This document shows, one piece after another, positions 1 to 6,024 of a DNA stretch of 8,594 bases. Both the position numbers and the translations under genes were made by a program. The notes beneath the pieces were generated by a model. That model did no database searches, was not told where the DNA came from, and saw only the letters and a list, made by a program, of their open reading frames with translations. The DNA is from a virus (taxonomy: Duplodnaviria; Heunggongvirae; Uroviricota; Caudoviricetes), in the IMG/VR virus record IMGVR_UViG_2690316210_000003, positions 1 through 8,594 of that record; one strand, given 5' to 3'. How positions within the stretch are numbered: position 1 is the first letter of the stretch; every line of letters begins with the position of its first letter.

Positions 1-986
1 GGAAAATCGATACTGGAAAAACTCTAACTCGGTGGCCAGTTTTTGTTGACCACTTCAACGCGAATATGTCACTGGCAACGTTCTATAACACTGTCTTAGG
101 CGAAACCTTCGATGATCTTAACGAAGACCGCACAGCCGACGAACTGGAAACGCTGAAAACTGATATTAGCCTAGACAATATTCCTGATGATGTATTGGCT
201 CTGGTAGGTGGAGTTGACCAGCAAAAAGACCGTCTGGAATCTACCTTGCTGGGTATTTCTCGTAAAGGGATATGTGTAGTTGATCACCGATCATTCTATG
301 ATGTGAACTGCGAACGCCACGAATCACTAGCATATAACCAGCTTTACAACTTCCTGAAAGCGAAATTCTATACCCGATCCGGTGAACGAATCCCGATGTT
401 ATCTGCTTTCGTGGACTCATCGAACGGACGAGCTACAAACGTGATCTATCGATTCTGTAGTCGGTGGCAAAATCTAACCGCCATTAAAGGCGCAAGCAAT
501 GTTGATGCTCCAATCCTTCCGGTAAAAGACACAAGAACGGGCGGTTTTACCCTTAAAATTCTGGGCGTAAACAACCTTAAAACGATGATCCGTGAAATGA
601 TTAACCGGAACTTGAGAGATGGCGATCCTCACACTGTCTTCCAGATTGGTGACGTTCCTGATGACTACTGCGAGCAATTGCTATCTGAACAGTTGAAACG
701 GCAGGGTAATACCACACGTTGGGTAAAAGTTGGACAAGCACGAAACGAGGCTCTCGACTGCCTGGCTTATTCCTATGCTGCTTCTCGTCATGTGCTCAAT
801 AAAATGTCATGGGAAAAACTCGAAGCCATCAAAGATAGTTTGAACCGCGAACCAGAAGAATCCGTAAAAGCTCCTGAAACGCAATCTGACGAGCAAATCG
901 AAGAAACTAAGCCAATCACACGACCACAACGTCAAAACATCGCCAGACGCCCAAATAGAGGCCGTAGCTGGGTAACATCGTTCTAA
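1..986 (+). CDS. Probable terminase large subunit, C-terminal portion (5'-partial; gene starts upstream of window)
   Basis: The frame of the listed 66..986 ORF is open from the first full codon (nt 3) to TAA at 984-986. ATG at 66 has no Shine-Dalgarno upstream (aacgcgaatATG), so it is probably an internal Met. Placement directly upstream of the portal candidate fits a packaging ATPase/nuclease; the C-terminal RNEALDCLAYSYAA segment resembles lambda gpA-like terminases from memory only. Confidence 0.55.
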   Translation, partial: KIDTGKTLTRWPVFVDHFNANMSLATFYNTVLGETFDDLNEDRTADELETLKTDISLDNIPDDVLALVGGVDQQKDRLESTLLGISRKGICVVDHRSFYDVNCERHESLAYNQLYNFLKAKFYTRSGERIPMLSAFVDSSNGRATNVIYRFCSRWQNLTAIKGASNVDAPILPVKDTRTGGFTLKILGVNNLKTMIREMINRNLRDGDPHTVFQIGDVPDDYCEQLLSEQLKRQGNTTRWVKVGQARNEALDCLAYSYAASRHVLNKMSWEKLEAIKDSLNREPEESVKAPETQSDEQIEETKPITRPQRQNIARRPNRGRSWVTSF

Positions 987-992
987 TAACTC

Positions 993-1010
993 GCCGTCCT
1001 TCGGGGCGGC
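993..1010 (+). promoter_or_regulatory. GC-rich RNA stem-loop with UUCG tetraloop, no U-tract
   Basis: gccgtcc-ttcg-ggggcggc forms a 7-bp stem (one G-U pair) closing a UUCG loop, 7 nt after the terminase stop; the following sequence (ttactcc) is not U-rich, so it is not a classical intrinsic terminator. Confidence 0.45.
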
Positions 1011-1022
1011 TTACTCCTAAAT

Positions 1023-1042
1023 ATTGTTAATCCAATAACAAT
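1023..1042. repeat. 7-bp inverted repeat ATTGTTA-N6-TAACAAT upstream of the 164-aa gene
   Basis: Perfect 7-bp arms with a 6-nt spacer, read directly from the sequence; AT-rich, so chance occurrence is not excluded. Confidence 0.3.
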
Positions 1043-1046
1043 TAAA

Positions 1047-1058
1047 TAAGGGGTAATT
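1047..1058 (+). promoter_or_regulatory. Ribosome-binding site (ATAAGGGGTAAT motif)
   Basis: AAGGGG core 5 nt upstream of ATG 1059; same extended motif recurs at 1549, 5304 and 6012. Confidence 0.7.
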
Positions 1059-1553
1059 ATGAGTTTAGAACTAATTCCCTTAGTAATTCGTAAAGGCGAA
1101 AAAATCACGCTGGCGAATGAAGAGGGTGTAACAATTCAGGTAGGAAATAGTAAAGGTATCATTTATCAGGTTGATGATTCTCCGGCTAATCACGAGATTA
1201 AAACTCTCTCATTCGAGATAGGTAAATATACCATCGTAATAACTTTGGAAGAAGAACTGGTATCAATGCAGGAATTAACTGTTTTGCCAGTATTCGCCAA
1301 ACAATCCAAAAAAGAATATCTGCGGGAAACTATCGCCTTAATCGAGCAAGTTATTTTCGCCCGTTTATCTGGGGACGAAGCCGCATTATCTCAAATGACC
1401 GTGAAAGGAAATACTTTCGCCTATGAGTCATTGGCTGTTCTCCAGACTCTAAAAGTCGATTATGAACGTCAACTGTCTAAATTAATTCAAGCCGAACGAC
1501 GTAAACAGGGAATTAGCCCGATTAAAAATATCAAATTACGTCTTACGCGATAA
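1059..1553 (+). CDS. Hypothetical protein (164 aa), unknown function
   Basis: ATG with strong upstream RBS; stop TAA 1551-1553 overlaps the RBS of the next gene. No motif I can recognise. Sits between terminase and portal, where lambda has W, but is much longer than W. Confidence 0.8.
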   Translation: MSLELIPLVIRKGEKITLANEEGVTIQVGNSKGIIYQVDDSPANHEIKTLSFEIGKYTIVITLEEELVSMQELTVLPVFAKQSKKEYLRETIALIEQVIFARLSGDEAALSQMTVKGNTFAYESLAVLQTLKVDYERQLSKLIQAERRKQGISPIKNIKLRLTR

Positions 1554-1563
1554 GGGGTAAATC
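1549..1563 (+). promoter_or_regulatory. Ribosome-binding site overlapping upstream stop codon (ATAAGGGGTAAATC)
   Basis: TAA stop of the 164-aa gene (1551-1553) is the first three bases of the TAAGGGG element; ATG 1564 follows 6 nt after GGGG. Confidence 0.7.
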
Positions 1564-3075
1564 ATGTTTAATCTTTTTCGACGCAAAAAGGCGGTAGAAA
1601 CTCCAGTTAAAACTAATCACCGCCAGCAACAACCAAAAATTTTCATCGATAAGCAAGTAGAAAAATTTCAGAAAGACCTGAATACACGTTCATTGGGATT
1701 AGTTGGTGATCGCATTGATGGATCGCTTCAACAAGATACTATCACAGGAACCTTCAATAAGGCTCTCAAATCGAACGGTAAGCGCCTTTATGATCAGGGT
1801 CGTACTCTGGCTATAAACAATGCTGTAGGCAAGCGATACAAGCAGTATATCGTTGACCAAGTTGTTGGTACGGGGCTTGATCCGAAACCATCAATCGTTA
1901 AATCAAATGGCAAACTTGACACCGCACTGAATAAGCAGATCGAGAATGCTTTCTGGAAGTGGGCGCAGAGTGCTAAACGCTTCTCTCGCAACGGTCGCTT
2001 TAACTTCCGTGAAATGCTGGCAATGGCAGAATCTGAACGTGTTCAGGGTGGAGAATGCTTCATCGTTTTAACCAAAGAGAACAATGAGTTACAAGTTTCT
2101 ATTCTGTCTGCTGATAGGTGCGACTGGTCGCTTAGTCGTGAAATAAGCAAAGAACGTGCGATCTATCAGGGGATTGAGTATGACGTAGACACAATGCGCC
2201 CTGTAGCATACTGGTTTAGAAAAATCAATCTACTGACTCAGACCTACACTGGCGAAAATTATCGCGTAGATGCTTCTCAGGTGTGCCACTACTACCAGCC
2301 ACTGTGCGCGGAAAGTTTACGTGGTGTGACTGACTTCCTGCCAGTGATTAAGGATATTGCGCATCAAGAAGCGTTCCGCGAAACCGCGATCGTCCAGAAA
2401 CGTATTGCAGCTAGCTCTATGGGCTTTATTGAACGTCCGAAAGATTCTGGTGACGATTTTGATACTGGTGAAGAGGATGAACAATATCAAGCGCCGGAAG
2501 TAGTACAGGACTTTGCACCGGGTACTATTCAGGAATTGCCGGAAGGGGCAACAATCAAGAGCATTCAATCATCGCAAAATGGCGATGACTTTAACAGCTT
2601 CAATGATGCGATGTTCACTAGCGTATCAATGGGCTTAGGCGTGTTCAAACAGGGCTTAACAGGAGATTGTTCACAGATCAACTACTCAGCCGCACGTTTT
2701 GGGGAACTAACCCAGCGTAACCGCATTAAAGCACTGCAAAACAAATTGATTGAAACAGTGGTATTGCCAATTTTTGAAGCATATCTACGCCATTATTCCG
2801 CGCGTGGTATTGTTCCGATTCGTATTACTGCAATTCCGCATATTATCGATAATACAACTATTATTCGTCCGCGTTTTGAATCCGTCGATCCTATTAAAGA
2901 CGTAAACGCCGAGATTGCTTTAATTCAAAATGGTCTTAAATCACGTACTGCCGTTATATTAGAACGTGGTGATGATCCTGAAAAAGTATTCTCAGAGATT
3001 CAAGCCGAAAAGAGCGCACTAAATATTATCGTTGATGGCGAGGGTGAAGAAAAAAATTCCCCAGCCGATCCCTAA
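1564..3075 (+). CDS. Probable portal protein (503 aa)
   Basis: Size typical of portals, position between terminase and protease/capsid, acidic C-terminal tail (DGEGEEKNSPADP). Assignment is by synteny and size, not a verified homology hit. Confidence 0.6.
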   Translation: MFNLFRRKKAVETPVKTNHRQQQPKIFIDKQVEKFQKDLNTRSLGLVGDRIDGSLQQDTITGTFNKALKSNGKRLYDQGRTLAINNAVGKRYKQYIVDQVVGTGLDPKPSIVKSNGKLDTALNKQIENAFWKWAQSAKRFSRNGRFNFREMLAMAESERVQGGECFIVLTKENNELQVSILSADRCDWSLSREISKERAIYQGIEYDVDTMRPVAYWFRKINLLTQTYTGENYRVDASQVCHYYQPLCAESLRGVTDFLPVIKDIAHQEAFRETAIVQKRIAASSMGFIERPKDSGDDFDTGEEDEQYQAPEVVQDFAPGTIQELPEGATIKSIQSSQNGDDFNSFNDAMFTSVSMGLGVFKQGLTGDCSQINYSAARFGELTQRNRIKALQNKLIETVVLPIFEAYLRHYSARGIVPIRITAIPHIIDNTTIIRPRFESVDPIKDVNAEIALIQNGLKSRTAVILERGDDPEKVFSEIQAEKSALNIIVDGEGEEKNSPADP

Positions 3076-3083
3076 TAACCAAC

Positions 3084-3100
3084 GGGGGCGCAATGCCCCC
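3084..3100 (+). promoter_or_regulatory. GC-rich stem-loop (GGGGGC/GCCCCC), no U-tract
   Basis: gggggc-gcaat-gccccc, 6-bp G:C stem 8 nt after the portal stop and 20 nt before ATG 3121; followed by aattaatt rather than a T-run. Confidence 0.45.
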
Positions 3101-3108
3101 AATTAATT

Positions 3109-3120
3109 AAAGGTGATTAA
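3109..3120 (+). promoter_or_regulatory. Ribosome-binding site (AAAGGTGATTAA)
   Basis: AGGTGA 4 nt upstream of ATG 3121. Confidence 0.65.
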
Positions 3121-3630
3121 ATGCTTAAATTTCGCCGCGAACTTAACGGTTACGGTGGAGTTATTAACGAAGGGCATACTGATCAATACGAATTTGAAAT
3201 TGCTTTCTCCAGTGAACAGCCTTATCAGCGCCAATTCTGGGATGAGCAAAATCAAGAAATGGTGGTATTAGATGAAATTCTGGTACATACACCGGAAGCG
3301 GTTGATCTGTCTCGTCTGAATAATAACGCTCCGTTGCTGTTTAATCATAATTTCGATAATCATTTAGGTGTCGTTTGTAACGCTCGAATCGATGCGGATA
3401 AAGTAGGCCGTGCGACCGTTAGATTCTCTAAGCATGGCACTTTGGCTAATGATATTCGTAATAAAGTCATTGAAGGTACGATGGAAAAAATTTCTGTCGG
3501 CTATGACATTAAAGAATATCACATCGATTATGCCAAAGGACAATTGATTGTTACTAAGTTTGTTCCTTTCGAATTAAGTTTTGTTACGGTCCCGGCGGAC
3601 GATTCGGTCGGTTTAAATCGCTCTCTAAAT
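3121..3630 (+). other. HK97-type prohead protease domain (approximate bounds)
   Basis: Candidate catalytic His76 and Ser125 are 49 residues apart; I recall the same spacing for HK97 gp4 (His65/Ser114), unverified. Confidence 0.5.
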
Positions 3631-5124
3631 ACTATCACAGTTAATTTGGAGGCTAAACGCGATATGACTAAAGAACAAATTGAAGAAATCAAAGAAGAAC
3701 AAGAATCCGCTCAGGTTGAAGAAACTCCGGTAGAAGAAATTAAAGAATCGGAAGTTGAAGAAACTCAAGAGCGCCAAGTTGAAGAGAATAAAGAAGATGA
3801 AAATCTCGAAGACGGAAAAGACGCTGAACATCCTGAAAGTGTTGATGATGATAGTTCAACTGTTCGGGAAACAGAAGAAGTAAAAGAAGAACGTGAAGCT
3901 GCTCCGGTTGAAGAAGAAAAAACCGAGGAAGTGGCTGAACGTTCCGAAGAAGACGAATTAGAAATCCGCGAAATTGCACGCGAGCTAAATATTAACGACG
4001 AAGAATTAGAACGCGCATTGGCAGTTAAAGACATGACGCCGGAAGCATTCCGCACTAAGGCACTAAATAACATTACCAATGCTCAACGTATTAACGAACA
4101 ACAAATTAAGGACTCTAAAATGGAAAAAACTTTTGACCTGAACAACGTAATTCGCTCTCTGGTAGATGGTGAAGCTCTGGGTGCTCACGAAGCCGAGTTT
4201 TCTGCAATGGCTGCTACTGCAACTATGCAGCGTGGTCGTGCTGCTCGTGGTGGCTCTGTATTCGTTCCGGCTGCTGCTATGCGTGCTGCTGCTGCTGGTA
4301 ACACCAAAGCTGACCTGACTGCTATCACTGACGAAAAACTGATGACTGAATCCTACATCGAAATGCTGATGCCGGAATCCGTTCTGGGTCGTCTGGGTGT
4401 GACTGTTTATAGTGGCTTGACTGCTCCGACCGCTATTCCAAAAATGACTAAATCCAGCGTTGACGCTTTCGGCTTCGTTGATGAAAACGGTGCTGCACCG
4501 GAAGGCAAAGCTGAATTTGCAAACGTGAAACTGTCTCCTAAGACTTTTGCTGGTGGGAACCCGATCAGCCGCCAGAGCATCAAAACCGTACCGGGCATCG
4601 CTACCCTGATCACTGATCACATCAACCAGGCTGTTCGCATCAAACTGGAACAACTGATTCTGTCTGACAAAGCTAACGATCGTGGTCCGGCTGGTCTGGT
4701 TAAACAACTGGTAGACGCTAGCCGCGTTGAGAAGAAAGCTGCTTTCACCTACAAAGACTTCCTGAAAGAAATTGCTAAACTGACCGACGCTGGCGTTCCG
4801 GCACAGTCCATCAAGTTTGCAATGAGCGGTGCAACTGCTGCTGAACTGGAATCTACCCTGAAAGATAACGGCGTTTCTGGTTATATCATCGAAAACGGCA
4901 AACTGGCTGGTTACGAAGTAGTTACTTCTGGTGTTATTCCGGCAGACCACATCGTTCTGGGTGACTTCTCCGGTATTACTATCGGTGAGTGGGGCGGTCT
5001 GGAACTGGATATGGACGACACCACCTACCGCGCACAGTCCGCTATCGTTCCGCGTATCTGGGTAGATCTGGATTATGTAGTTACCCAGCCGGAAGCTCTG
5101 AAAGTTCTTCACGTCTCCGAATGA
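3121..5124 (+). CDS. Prohead protease - scaffold-like acidic segment - major capsid protein fusion ORF (667 aa)
   Basis: Single uninterrupted ORF. The N-terminal ~170 aa carry HK97-type prohead protease (S78/U35-like) motifs as I remember them: LLFNHNFDNHLG (His76), KISVGYDI (Ser125), ELSFVTVPADD. Residues ~182-333 are Glu-rich and low-complexity, like a scaffold/delta domain. Residues 334-667 are Ala/Gly-rich with strongly optimised codons, typical of a major capsid protein. Confidence 0.75.
   Translation: MLKFRRELNGYGGVINEGHTDQYEFEIAFSSEQPYQRQFWDEQNQEMVVLDEILVHTPEAVDLSRLNNNAPLLFNHNFDNHLGVVCNARIDADKVGRATVRFSKHGTLANDIRNKVIEGTMEKISVGYDIKEYHIDYAKGQLIVTKFVPFELSFVTVPADDSVGLNRSLNTITVNLEAKRDMTKEQIEEIKEEQESAQVEETPVEEIKESEVEETQERQVEENKEDENLEDGKDAEHPESVDDDSSTVRETEEVKEEREAAPVEEEKTEEVAERSEEDELEIREIARELNINDEELERALAVKDMTPEAFRTKALNNITNAQRINEQQIKDSKMEKTFDLNNVIRSLVDGEALGAHEAEFSAMAATATMQRGRAARGGSVFVPAAAMRAAAAGNTKADLTAITDEKLMTESYIEMLMPESVLGRLGVTVYSGLTAPTAIPKMTKSSVDAFGFVDENGAAPEGKAEFANVKLSPKTFAGGNPISRQSIKTVPGIATLITDHINQAVRIKLEQLILSDKANDRGPAGLVKQLVDASRVEKKAAFTYKDFLKEIAKLTDAGVPAQSIKFAMSGATAAELESTLKDNGVSGYIIENGKLAGYEVVTSGVIPADHIVLGDFSGITIGEWGGLELDMDDTTYRAQSAIVPRIWVDLDYVVTQPEALKVLHVSE
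3664..4119 (+). other. Glu-rich scaffold/delta-like segment with in-frame internal ATG at 3664
   Basis: About 150 residues dominated by E/K/V with 39-bp periodic GTTGAAGAA(ACT) repeats (3715, 3754, 3778); GGAGG at 3648-3652 lies 11 nt upstream of the in-frame ATG 3664. Confidence 0.45.
4120..5124 (+). other. Major capsid protein domain (HK97-fold candidate) with in-frame internal ATG at 4120
   Basis: AAGGA at 4108-4112 lies 7 nt upstream of ATG 4120 (MEKTFDL...). From here to the stop, Leu is almost exclusively CTG and Arg CGT, with Gly GGT and Ala GCT favoured, unlike the upstream part of the same ORF. Confidence 0.6.
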
Positions 5125-5146
5125 ACTAGCTTAGAACCTTCTGAAC

Positions 5147-5167
5147 CTTCCCCCGATTTGGGGGAAG
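5147..5167 (+). promoter_or_regulatory. Perfect 8-bp stem-loop (CTTCCCCC-gattt-GGGGGAAG) 22 nt downstream of the capsid stop
   Basis: Read directly; followed by purine-rich sequence, no U-tract. Confidence 0.5.
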
Positions 5168-5261
5168 AAAATCTGATTCCATCTCAGGAAGAAGAAGTTC
5201 AAGAGGTTACGGCGAAAGCCACAGTTAAAAAAGAACGTAAGACTAAAGCAAAATAATAATT

Positions 5262-5288
5262 AGCCCTGCCTAACGGTGGGGCTTTTTT
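5262..5288 (+). terminator. Rho-independent terminator after the capsid gene
   Basis: agccctgcc-taac-ggtggggct forms a 9-bp stem (two G-U pairs) followed immediately by TTTTT(T); located after the TAATAA double stop. Confidence 0.7.
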
Positions 5289-5303
5289 GTATGTAAATAC
5301 TCC

Positions 5304-5318
5304 ATAAAGGGGGTAACT
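5304..5318 (+). promoter_or_regulatory. Ribosome-binding site (ATAAAGGGGGTAACT)
   Basis: GGGGG 5 nt upstream of ATG 5319; begins only ~15 nt after the terminator U-tract. Confidence 0.7.
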
Positions 5319-5609
5319 ATGTTCAAATTATCAGAATCACAATTATCAAGAATGTTTAAGAGTGCTCCTGTATTTGTGGTGGAAGGTGGTAAATCAATTC
5401 GTGCTTACCATGAAATTACTACTACCGACGAACAAGGGGTAATTACAGAATCAGAATTTCTATTTTGTCGTGAGGGAGACTTAAATCAGGGTGATGTTGT
5501 CATTGTAGACGGTGAACGCTTCAAAGTTCAATACGTTAAGCGCAATGGTGATAATACTTCTGATTGCTTTATTGCTCGTGCAGGGGGTACACATGCTCGC
5601 TACCGTTAA
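5319..5609 (+). CDS. Small virion protein (96 aa), possible head-tail adaptor/head-closure protein
   Basis: Strong RBS; the C-terminal GDVVIVDGERFKVQYV segment resembles the end of head-tail joining proteins as I recall them. Position is immediately downstream of the capsid gene. Function tentative. Confidence 0.75.
   Translation: MFKLSESQLSRMFKSAPVFVVEGGKSIRAYHEITTTDEQGVITESEFLFCREGDLNQGDVVIVDGERFKVQYVKRNGDNTSDCFIARAGGTHARYR
5582..5592 (+). promoter_or_regulatory. Ribosome-binding site embedded in the 3' coding end of the 96-aa gene (AGGGGGTACAC)
   Basis: GGGGGTA + 3 nt + ATG 5593, same geometry as the RBSs at 1059, 5319 and 6025. Confidence 0.6.
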
Positions 5610-6015
5610 TAATATGCCGAGACTGAAAATCAAACGCGCCTTGCAAGATATTATCGAACAAGATTTAGGTCTGGCTTTAAACGTAGAACAAACTCAGCAA
5701 GGCTTTAGTGATGACGTGGTTTGTTGGATTACTGGCATGAATGAAACTTATACGCGTGTTCGTGGTGGTAATGCAATGCAAGCTGAATGCGTTATCGAAA
5801 TGCAGTTGTATTCTCAGAATCATGAAACAAAAATCCATGAGGGTATTTGCCAGATAATCCAGATTCAGCCGGATAACCCACGATTTAAAGATTTGGGCTT
5901 CTCTATTTCAGATATCACTCCAGTAGCTTCTAATACCGATTATGACGATGATTCTAGTGATGGGGGTATCGTTGGGACACTTAGCCTTAAATTTTCTTAT
6001 CTAGCGCGTTTTTAA
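5593..6015 (+). CDS. Hypothetical structural protein (141 aa from ATG 5593), possible connector/tail-completion protein
   Basis: Same frame as the listed 5512..6015 ORF, but 5512 is a GTG with no RBS inside the upstream gene; ATG 5593 has the conserved RBS. Overlaps the upstream gene by 17 nt. ATG 5614 is an alternative start without a recognisable RBS. Confidence 0.7.
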   Translation: MLATVNNMPRLKIKRALQDIIEQDLGLALNVEQTQQGFSDDVVCWITGMNETYTRVRGGNAMQAECVIEMQLYSQNHETKIHEGICQIIQIQPDNPRFKDLGFSISDITPVASNTDYDDDSSDGGIVGTLSLKFSYLARF

Positions 6016-6024
6016 GGGGTAATA
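6012..6024 (+). promoter_or_regulatory. Ribosome-binding site overlapping upstream stop (TTAAGGGGTAATA)
   Basis: TAA stop 6013-6015 forms the start of TAAGGGG; ATG 6025 lies 5 nt after GGGG. Confidence 0.7.

Follow-up and report, generated by a model that had tools for sequence, protein, structure and literature searches.

The window analysed here is an 8,594-nt stretch from a tailed phage of the Caudoviricetes (positions 1 to 8,594 of IMG/VR record IMGVR_UViG_2690316210_000003), and the element under study is a short motif, ATAAGGGGTAA-N3-4-ATG, that recurs in front of its genes. The window corresponds to the head and head-tail section of a phage late operon with every gene on the + strand, and it is very likely that the motif is the Shine-Dalgarno (SD) site of the late (head, tail, and lysis) genes in a family of temperate phages of E. 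coli-type hosts. The following genes are present:

1..986, + strand: large terminase, lambda-type, C-terminal half (match to the terminase gpA nuclease)
1059..1553, + strand: head-tail joining protein, 164 amino acids (aa) (PHROG head-tail joining match)
1564..3075, + strand: portal protein, lambda-family (PF05136)
3121..5124, + strand: prohead protease-scaffold-major capsid fusion (PF04586 and PF05065)
5319..5609, + strand: small head-tail gene, 96 aa, head-tail attachment-like
5593..6015, + strand: small head-tail gene, 140 aa
6025..6858, + strand: 277-aa protein with a weak major-tail-protein match
from 6932, + strand: tail fibre

Seven open reading frames (ORFs) have their complete start in the window (1059, 1564, 3121, 5319, 5593, 6025, and 6932), and five of the seven products of these motif-headed genes have PHROG and Pfam matches. 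Third codon positions are the most variable among relatives, i.e., the window genes show coding-type conservation, and the PGAP annotation of one relative, L001, gives the same gene starts, including the equivalent of 5593. L001 is an intact 37.9-kb prophage in strain STEC1575, inserted in ycdX and carrying a serine recombinase. At least 80% of the window is present at ca. 90% identity in 22 of the 5,426 complete genomes searched (E. coli), and IMG/VR holds 32 further close relatives; beyond these, IMG/VR gave two GC-rich distant ones without comparable ribosome-binding sites (RBSs), and one-genome-per-species contigs, searched for deeper relatives, yielded none. Conservation at gene starts, codon positions, and intergenic regions refers below to a set of 33 relatives in which ca. 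10% of bases differ from the window. There is no close cultured phage, the nearest by portal protein being DCP80 (37% identity). The first 57 nt of the window are a 100% match to an IS911 end that cuts the terminase gene and leaves only the C-terminal nuclease half, and the prophage copy in the source genome is therefore probably defective.

Two classes of RBS account for the gene starts, class 1 with the pattern GGGGTA-N2-4-ATG and class 2 with AGGTGATTA-N1-2-ATG:

1046..1061, + strand: class-1 RBS of the 164-aa head-tail joining gene, ATAAGGGGTAATT and ATG (SD 1047-1054, ATG 1059); 30 of 33 relatives identical over the 30 nt upstream
1550..1566, + strand: class-1 RBS of the portal gene, ATAAGGGGTAAATC and ATG 1564; contains the stop of ORF 1059..1553
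3109..3123, + strand: class-2 RBS of the protease-scaffold-capsid gene, AAAGGTGATTAA and ATG (AGGTGAT 3111-3117, ATG 3121); predicted duplex -10.8 kcal/mol, 32 of 33 relatives identical
5304..5321, + strand: class-1 RBS of the 96-aa gene, ATAAAGGGGGTAACT and ATG (AAGGGGGT 5307-5314, ATG 5319); predicted duplex -12.1 kcal/mol, A-run and G-run length variants in relatives
5582..5595, + strand: reduced class-1 RBS of the 140-aa gene, AGGGGGTACAC and ATG 5593; lies within the end of the 96-aa gene
6012..6027, + strand: class-1 RBS of the 277-aa gene, TTAAGGGGTAATA and ATG 6025; SD-to-ATG stretch invariant in 33 of 33 relatives
6921..6934, + strand: class-2 RBS of the tail-fibre gene, GAGGTGATTAG and ATG 6932; 8-nt perfect complement GAGGUGAU, predicted duplex -13.8 kcal/mol

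The class-1 pattern matches five times (1050, 1554, 5310, 5584, and 6016) against 0.09 expected, and the class-2 pattern twice (3111 and 6922) against 0.01 expected; neither count was reached in any of 200 shuffles. Together these matches are all seven complete gene starts of the window with none left over, and motif copies occur on the + strand exclusively. The 10-mer TAAGGGGTAA is exact at 1047, 1551, and 6013, and with up to one mismatch it matches four times (0.43 expected; a count of four was reached by 0 of 200 shuffles), the additional copy lying within a gene at 5433. The initial annotation had described a recurrent translation-initiation motif with near-constant geometry, and every site it quoted exists; its coordinates are exact at 5304, 5582, and 6012 but off by one at the two others, where ATAAGGGGTAAT starts at 1046 and ATAAGGGGTAAA at 1550. 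The second RBS class that it placed before the fusion ORF and the fibre gene is likewise found there. The motif is not equally frequent inside coding regions: the internal near-copies at 5433 and 6491 (AAGGGGTA at 5434 and 6492) have no start codon behind them and are a minority, two of the seven AAGGGGTA/AGGGGGTA sites of the window. In class 1, the end of the G-run and the ATG are 5-6 nt apart at each of the five sites; in class 2, the aligned spacing is 7 nt.

The 3' tail of E. coli 16S ribosomal RNA (rRNA) reads GAUCACCUCCUUA-3' (TAAGGAGGTGATC), and its full 13-nt complement is UAAGGAGGUGAUC. The class-1 sequence TAAGG-GGT(A)AT is this complement minus the central A and with one mismatch, while class 2, (A/G)AGGTGAT, is a 3'-shifted part of the same complement, perfect over 7-8 nt. 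Predicted duplexes with GAUCACCUCCUUA-3' comprise 7-8 pairs and range from -8.5 to -13.8 kcal/mol, with a median of -10.8 kcal/mol for the window compared to -6.3 kcal/mol for host genes (n = 45; Mann-Whitney p = 4e-4). In these predictions, 8 nt of UAAGGGGU pair with the rRNA tail while U1537 bulges out (-8.6 kcal/mol), and AAGGGGGU pairs through a G.U wobble (-12.1 kcal/mol). The UAA flank pairs with the last three nucleotides of the 16S rRNA (UUA-3') and the U past the G-run with A1534; changing the 5' UAA to UCC weakens the predicted duplex from -8.6 to -6.4 kcal/mol, and changing the 3' U to C weakens it to -7.6 kcal/mol. The initial annotation saw conservation extend beyond the SD core into TAA/ATAA flanks. 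Such conservation is present, but, as the flank bases pair with 16S rRNA, most of it would belong to the SD element itself, and in the duplex model the outer A/T bases alone remain as spacer.

We thus envisage that UAAGGGG(G)U on the polycistronic late messenger RNA (mRNA) would pair with the last 8-9 nt of the 16S rRNA (3'-AUUCC[U]CCA-5'), with U1537 bulged or engaged in a G.U wobble in class 1, and that this pairing would position the 30S subunit so that 5-6 nt separate the G-run from the downstream AUG. Past the G-run, the A/U-rich spacer (e.g., UAAUU) is again complementary in part (AAU against GAU), and class 2, (A/G)AGGUGAU, would use the 3'-shifted part of the 13-nt complement at an aligned spacing of 7 nt. 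Similar to the SD/anti-SD pairing of E. coli, the phage sites lie on the sense strand 5-7 nt (aligned) before the AUG with 7-8 predicted pairs, and both classes are sub-windows of one 13-nt complement; the difference is that the phage core is GGGG(G) rather than GGAG or GAGG, so that U1537 bulges or forms G.U. A/U-rich enhancers beside SD sites bind ribosomal protein S1, e.g., in the T7 gene 10 leader. The AATTAA(A)TAA-type runs before the SD and TAAT-type spacers after it in the phage's hairpin-bearing intergenic regions resemble these, but the sequence upstream of the probably coupled phage sites described below is coding. A scan against Rfam 15 returned no family match, the sole hit (E 0.93, fibre gene, - strand) being at chance level.

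Two gene pairs have the upstream stop codon built into the downstream SD site, as the initial annotation had recognized at 1551 and 6013. The stop TAA (1551-1553) of ORF 1059..1553 provides the first three bases of the portal-gene motif, 10 nt from the ATG, and the stop TAA (6013-6015) of the ORF ending at 6015 provides those of the next motif, 9 nt from the ATG. The co-directional spacings are thus +10 nt (1553 to 1564) and +9 nt (6015 to 6025), with -17 nt for the third pair (5593 / 5609), where the 96-aa gene stops at 5607-5609 and overlaps the 140-aa gene by 17 nt. In the stop-in-SD pairs, the upstream UAA would supply the first three SD nucleotides with the AUG 9-10 nt on, and a terminating ribosome would then come to rest over the following initiation site. 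The 9-10 nt gaps make termination-reinitiation coupling a reasonable reading, and the translation of these pairs is probably coupled, although the downstream SD sites may well be strong enough for independent initiation. Short positive spacing is the condition of most efficient translational coupling (PMC12548453), and whether coupling works through unfolding or ribosome scanning is still debated (PMC12548453; PMC6728339). As in the coupled cistrons trpE-trpD and MS2 coat-lysis (PMC12548453; PMC6728339), the genes are co-directional and close, and here the upstream stop lies inside the downstream SD; in contrast to them, the downstream phage sites carry strong SD elements of their own, and evidence for the SD sequestration that an unfolding model needs is weak. 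A 9-bp interrupted stem is predicted at the portal site (z -1.67), and folding at the 277-aa gene site is no better than in shuffles (z 0.19). The stop-in-SD layout is the familiar one of tightly packed cistrons. The 140-aa gene also has a second in-frame ATG at 5614, 4 nt past the stop of the 96-aa gene (TAATAATATG). This ATG is a possible alternative start of the reinitiation type; the SD site is found at 5593 only.

The motif search that the initial annotation proposed for a complete genome was run on L001, where the exact 10-mer occurs four times and always (4/4) 2-4 nt before structural gene starts, i.e., those of the head-tail joining, portal, 277-aa protein, and tail-tube genes. Nine of its 18 GGGGTA words fall within 0-10 nt before an annotated start, positions that make up ca. 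0.6% of the sequence, and the lysis cassette provides a third stop-in-SD case, TAAGGGGGGTAAT-ATG. Defining a G-run site as an SD with four or more consecutive G, we obtained the following counts:

L001, co-directional terminase-to-endolysin (late) block: 13/22
L001, other prophage genes: 2/19 (Fisher p = 0.003 against the late block)
host genes: 3/45 (p = 7e-6 against the late block)
lambda late genes: 2/19

The G-run flavour also dominates in the window (5/7 starts). The other L001 genes have a recurrent RBS style of their own, AAGAGGATTA / (T)GGAGGA, with GAGGATT in 4/19. The regions 9689-18938 and 42410-47473 of L001 are non-structural genes with the AAGAGGATTA style, almost none of them with a Pfam match, and no replication genes were recognized in these regions by the Pfam scan (19 proteins). 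Gene order is the same in DCP80, whose equivalent starts carry AAGGAG, GAGGT, TAAGGA, and TAAGGAG; in this phage, TAGGGGAAG is confined to the site ahead of the 140-aa homologue. That ordinary SD variants serve the same genes there argues, from sequence comparison, that the RBS function is generic and the exact word lineage-specific.

Among the relatives, hardly any change occurs in the 30 nt that precede each start, and the intergenic regions 987-1058, 1554-1563, 3076-3120, 5260-5318, and 6016-6024 are much more conserved than second codon positions (non-majority fraction 0.000-0.009, compared to 0.02-0.03 for second positions of codons and 0.07-0.13 for third positions). The few natural changes within the motif include GGGGTAAT to GGGGTGAT, which brings the site closer to the rRNA complement, and A-runs or G-runs longer or shorter by one base; all would be benign for, or preferred by, an SD site. 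Three observations sit less comfortably with a plain SD site. Entire intergenic regions are near-invariant, so their conservation cannot be credited to the motif alone. An identical 10-mer at 4 of 22 late starts exceeds the usual heterogeneity of SD sites, the largest 10-mer sharing in the controls being 2/19 for lambda late genes and 1/45 for host genes. Finally, G-run sites keep to the late block to a significant degree, and generic SD selection alone leaves the use of GGGG for GGAG unexplained.

One rival explanation is that the near-identical 10-11-mers are SD sites made alike by shared ancestry or gene conversion of late-module intergenic cassettes, without selection on each flank base and with flanks that add nothing to a generic SD and an A/T-rich spacer. 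We regard this as unlikely overall, though it is the most serious competitor. The recurrent AAGAGGATTA style of the other prophage genes speaks in its favour, as do the layout common to the three hairpin intergenic regions (hairpin, CAATT(A/T)-rich stretch, SD) and the loss of the exact word in DCP80. Copying of regulatory cassettes does occur in this genome, given that a terminator cassette is present in three copies (D4). It has to be set against the pairing of the flank bases with 16S rRNA, worth 1-2 kcal/mol each in the model, and against the word usage within late genes, where GGGG is not avoided (observed/expected ratio, O/E, 0.99) but GGAG is (0.30). This difference suggests that a bare G-run is a weak ribosome binder; as it would not be "seen" as an SD-like word, real sites need their pairing flanks.

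Late-specific control is a much weaker proposition. It would make the motif additionally subject either to SD occlusion by upstream anti-SD-like stretches that have to be opened, or to escape from, or recognition by, a sequence-specific RNA-binding protein or RNase (e.g., a GGAG-cutting, T4 RegB-like enzyme), and we judge it improbable. Three anti-SD-like stretches lie upstream of motif copies:

1011..1018, + strand: TTACTCCT, anti-SD-like, predicted partner of AAGGGGTAA in the 1047 motif, in a stem that would tentatively occlude the SD
1537-1546: anti-SD-like TTACGTCTTA, upstream of a motif copy
5298-5303: anti-SD-like TACTCC, upstream of a motif copy

Within 987-1058 an 8-bp stem of UUACUCCU with AAGGGGUAA is predicted (z -2.44; 3 of 200 shuffles fold as well), and weaker stems at 1528-1569 and 5288-5324 reach z of about -1.6, but the stems at 5560-5598 and 5985-6030 do not surpass shuffles, and the regions, being invariant, offer no covariation. 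The confinement of G-run SD sites to the late block would also fit such control, as would the scarcity of GGAG: it is the lowest-O/E 4-mer on the sense strands of the late genes (0.30, z -5.8; L001 19025-42378), compared to 0.85 in lambda late genes and 0.78 in host genes, with 6 occurrences against 16.8 expected in the coding regions of the window. The complement CTCC is not depleted (1.09), and avoidance at the DNA level (restriction) was rejected on this ground. T4 RegB is a GGAG-specific endoribonuclease that inactivates early mRNAs at SD sites. The likeness to that system is that the phage late genes avoid GGAG in both SD sites and coding regions, while 7 of the 19 other genes have a GGAG SD. 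It differs in that no RegB or other RNase domain was found by Pfam scan in the 19 L001 non-structural proteins, and in that DCP80 depletes GGAG (0.37) and GAGG (0.31) yet has GGAG/GAGG SD sites. A RegB-like nuclease is thus unsupported on both counts, and we keep it as a low-probability idea. Because DCP80 depletes the very words that it uses as SD, the depletion looks like ordinary avoidance of internal SD-like words in highly expressed genes. By the same control, and with no nuclease domain found, it is slightly less probable still that UAAGGGGUAAU, as a private late dialect, together with the sense-strand avoidance of GGAG, sets late translation apart through a dedicated mechanism. Candidates for such a mechanism would be a GGAG-directed RNase, phage-encoded or met in superinfection, that spares late messages, or the regulated opening of UUACUCCU-type stems.

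The initial annotation had also left room for a promoter-like function, in which the motif would be or contain a late-gene promoter or transcription start signal. We consider this very improbable, and the promoter reading was rejected on the sigma-70 scan and on geometry. The motif is A/T-rich with a TAAT-like end, and the copies at 1047 and 5304 follow hairpins in true intergenic regions, but no motif site has a sigma-70-type match, and three copies (1551, 5582, and 6013) sit on or within the ORF before them. With only 2-4 nt between the motif and the ATG and no SD element other than the motif's own, transcription beginning at the motif would give an mRNA that has no RBS; moreover, a fixed distance to the ATG is a constraint of the ribosome and not of the polymerase. 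The window has 8 promoter-like sites where 17.5 would be expected, and this scarcity fits one long operon punctuated by terminator-like hairpins. A chance or compositional artefact has next to no probability, for although short A/T-flanked G-runs are not rare and two near-copies are internal (5433 and 6491), the counts were never reached in 200 shuffles, the copies keep exclusively to the + strand, and one stands at every start. In sum, the observation made in the initial annotation is confirmed and its interpretation partly supported.

The intergenic regions around the SD sites carry further elements:

993..1010, + strand: GC-rich hairpin with a UUCG loop past the terminase stop, without a U-tract; within the nearly invariant 987-1058
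1023-1042: inverted repeat ATTGTTA-N6-TAACAAT, constrained like the hairpins
3084..3100, + strand: GC-rich hairpin GGGGGC-gcaat-GCCCCC past the portal stop; within the invariant 3076-3120
5262..5290, + strand: intrinsic terminator-like hairpin (5262-5283) and T-run, after the capsid gene and upstream of the 5304 motif
6885..6910, + strand: terminator-like hairpin (6885-6904) between the 277-aa gene and the fibre RBS

The near-invariance of the intergenic hairpins points to control of the late operon at the RNA level. The terminator cassette, AAT(T/A)AT(A/T)AGCCCTGCC..GGTGGGGCTTTTTT, has its three L001 copies at 25150-25184 (equivalent to window 5256-5290), 31085-31119, and 32364-32398, in this order behind the extensions of the capsid and tail-tube genes and behind the tail chaperone genes; the gene before the third copy has no UGA extension. 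Tandem TAA TAA stops close the terminase (984-989) and portal (3073-3078) genes and the capsid extension (5254-5259).

These extensions follow UGA stops. The UGA of the capsid gene (5122-5124) is followed by 43 in-frame sense codons (TSLEPSEPSPDLGEENLIPSQEEEVQEVTAKATVKKERKTKAK) up to TAA TAA (5254-5259) and then by the terminator. UGA-A is kept in 34 of 34 sequences, the extension stays open over 28-45 codons with indels that are all multiples of 3, and neither of the other two frames is open in any of the 34. There are 21 different combinations of capsid C-terminus with extension peptide, and an acidic, proline-rich linker is common to the peptides, as is a basic tail, VTAKATAKKxRKxK (KKVGRPPKAK in one allele); variation in the extension is not concentrated at third positions, as would suit a linker that evolves fast. 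A UGA likewise closes the tail-tube gene in 17 of 28 relatives; 36-41 codons then continue in frame, encode the same basic tail (VTAKATAKRSRKAKD), and lead into a near-identical terminator. The other 11 of the 28 carry a different tail-tube allele that ends in TAA without an extension. Outside the window, this gene end lies as follows:

L001 30973-31120: tail-tube gene end with UGA extension

No internal start is conserved within the extensions, and ARAGORN found no credible suppressor tRNA: its sole call, a "tRNA-Gln" of 91 nt, lies within an L001 coding gene, is absent from the window, and is probably false. A search for naturally fused capsid-extension proteins gave one partial capsid protein and was uninformative. 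The pattern resembles programmed read-through of UGA in two proteins of the virion, capsid and tail tube. As in read-through of the Qbeta A1 type, a conserved, putatively leaky UGA precedes an in-frame open extension. Lactobacillus phage A2 has two frameshifts (PMC5009743), and the putative UGA extensions would be the read-through counterpart of that double frameshift. Our literature searches found no other read-through case in a tailed double-stranded DNA (dsDNA) phage. Beyond those searches, we know of none.

Other observations concern the proteins themselves. The C-terminal part of the fibre (window 7799-8556) has 85% DNA identity to gene 37 (distal long tail fibre) of the T4-like phage RB49, a likeness that points to recent exchange between this temperate phage and T-even-type phages. 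Directly downstream of the tail-tube gene, L001 31135-31641 encodes a protein with a gp38-adhesin-like N-terminal domain. The scaffold-like middle of the capsid fusion (window 3660-3960) contains imperfect 47-nt Glu/Lys-rich direct repeats (family D2 in L001).

The motif is a real and unusually uniform signal of an ordinary kind, a module-wide G-run dialect from whose position and complementarity we infer binding by the ribosome. It is a clean natural case of a G-run SD flavour that needs its flanks, and as such may be of use to those who model RBS strength. The invariant intergenic hairpins and the read-through candidate are better leads than the motif itself, and UGA read-through on both capsid and tail tube would, if true, be unusual for a tailed dsDNA phage. 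For the biology of this uncharacterised prophage family, found in some E. coli genomes, the motif fixes the gene starts.

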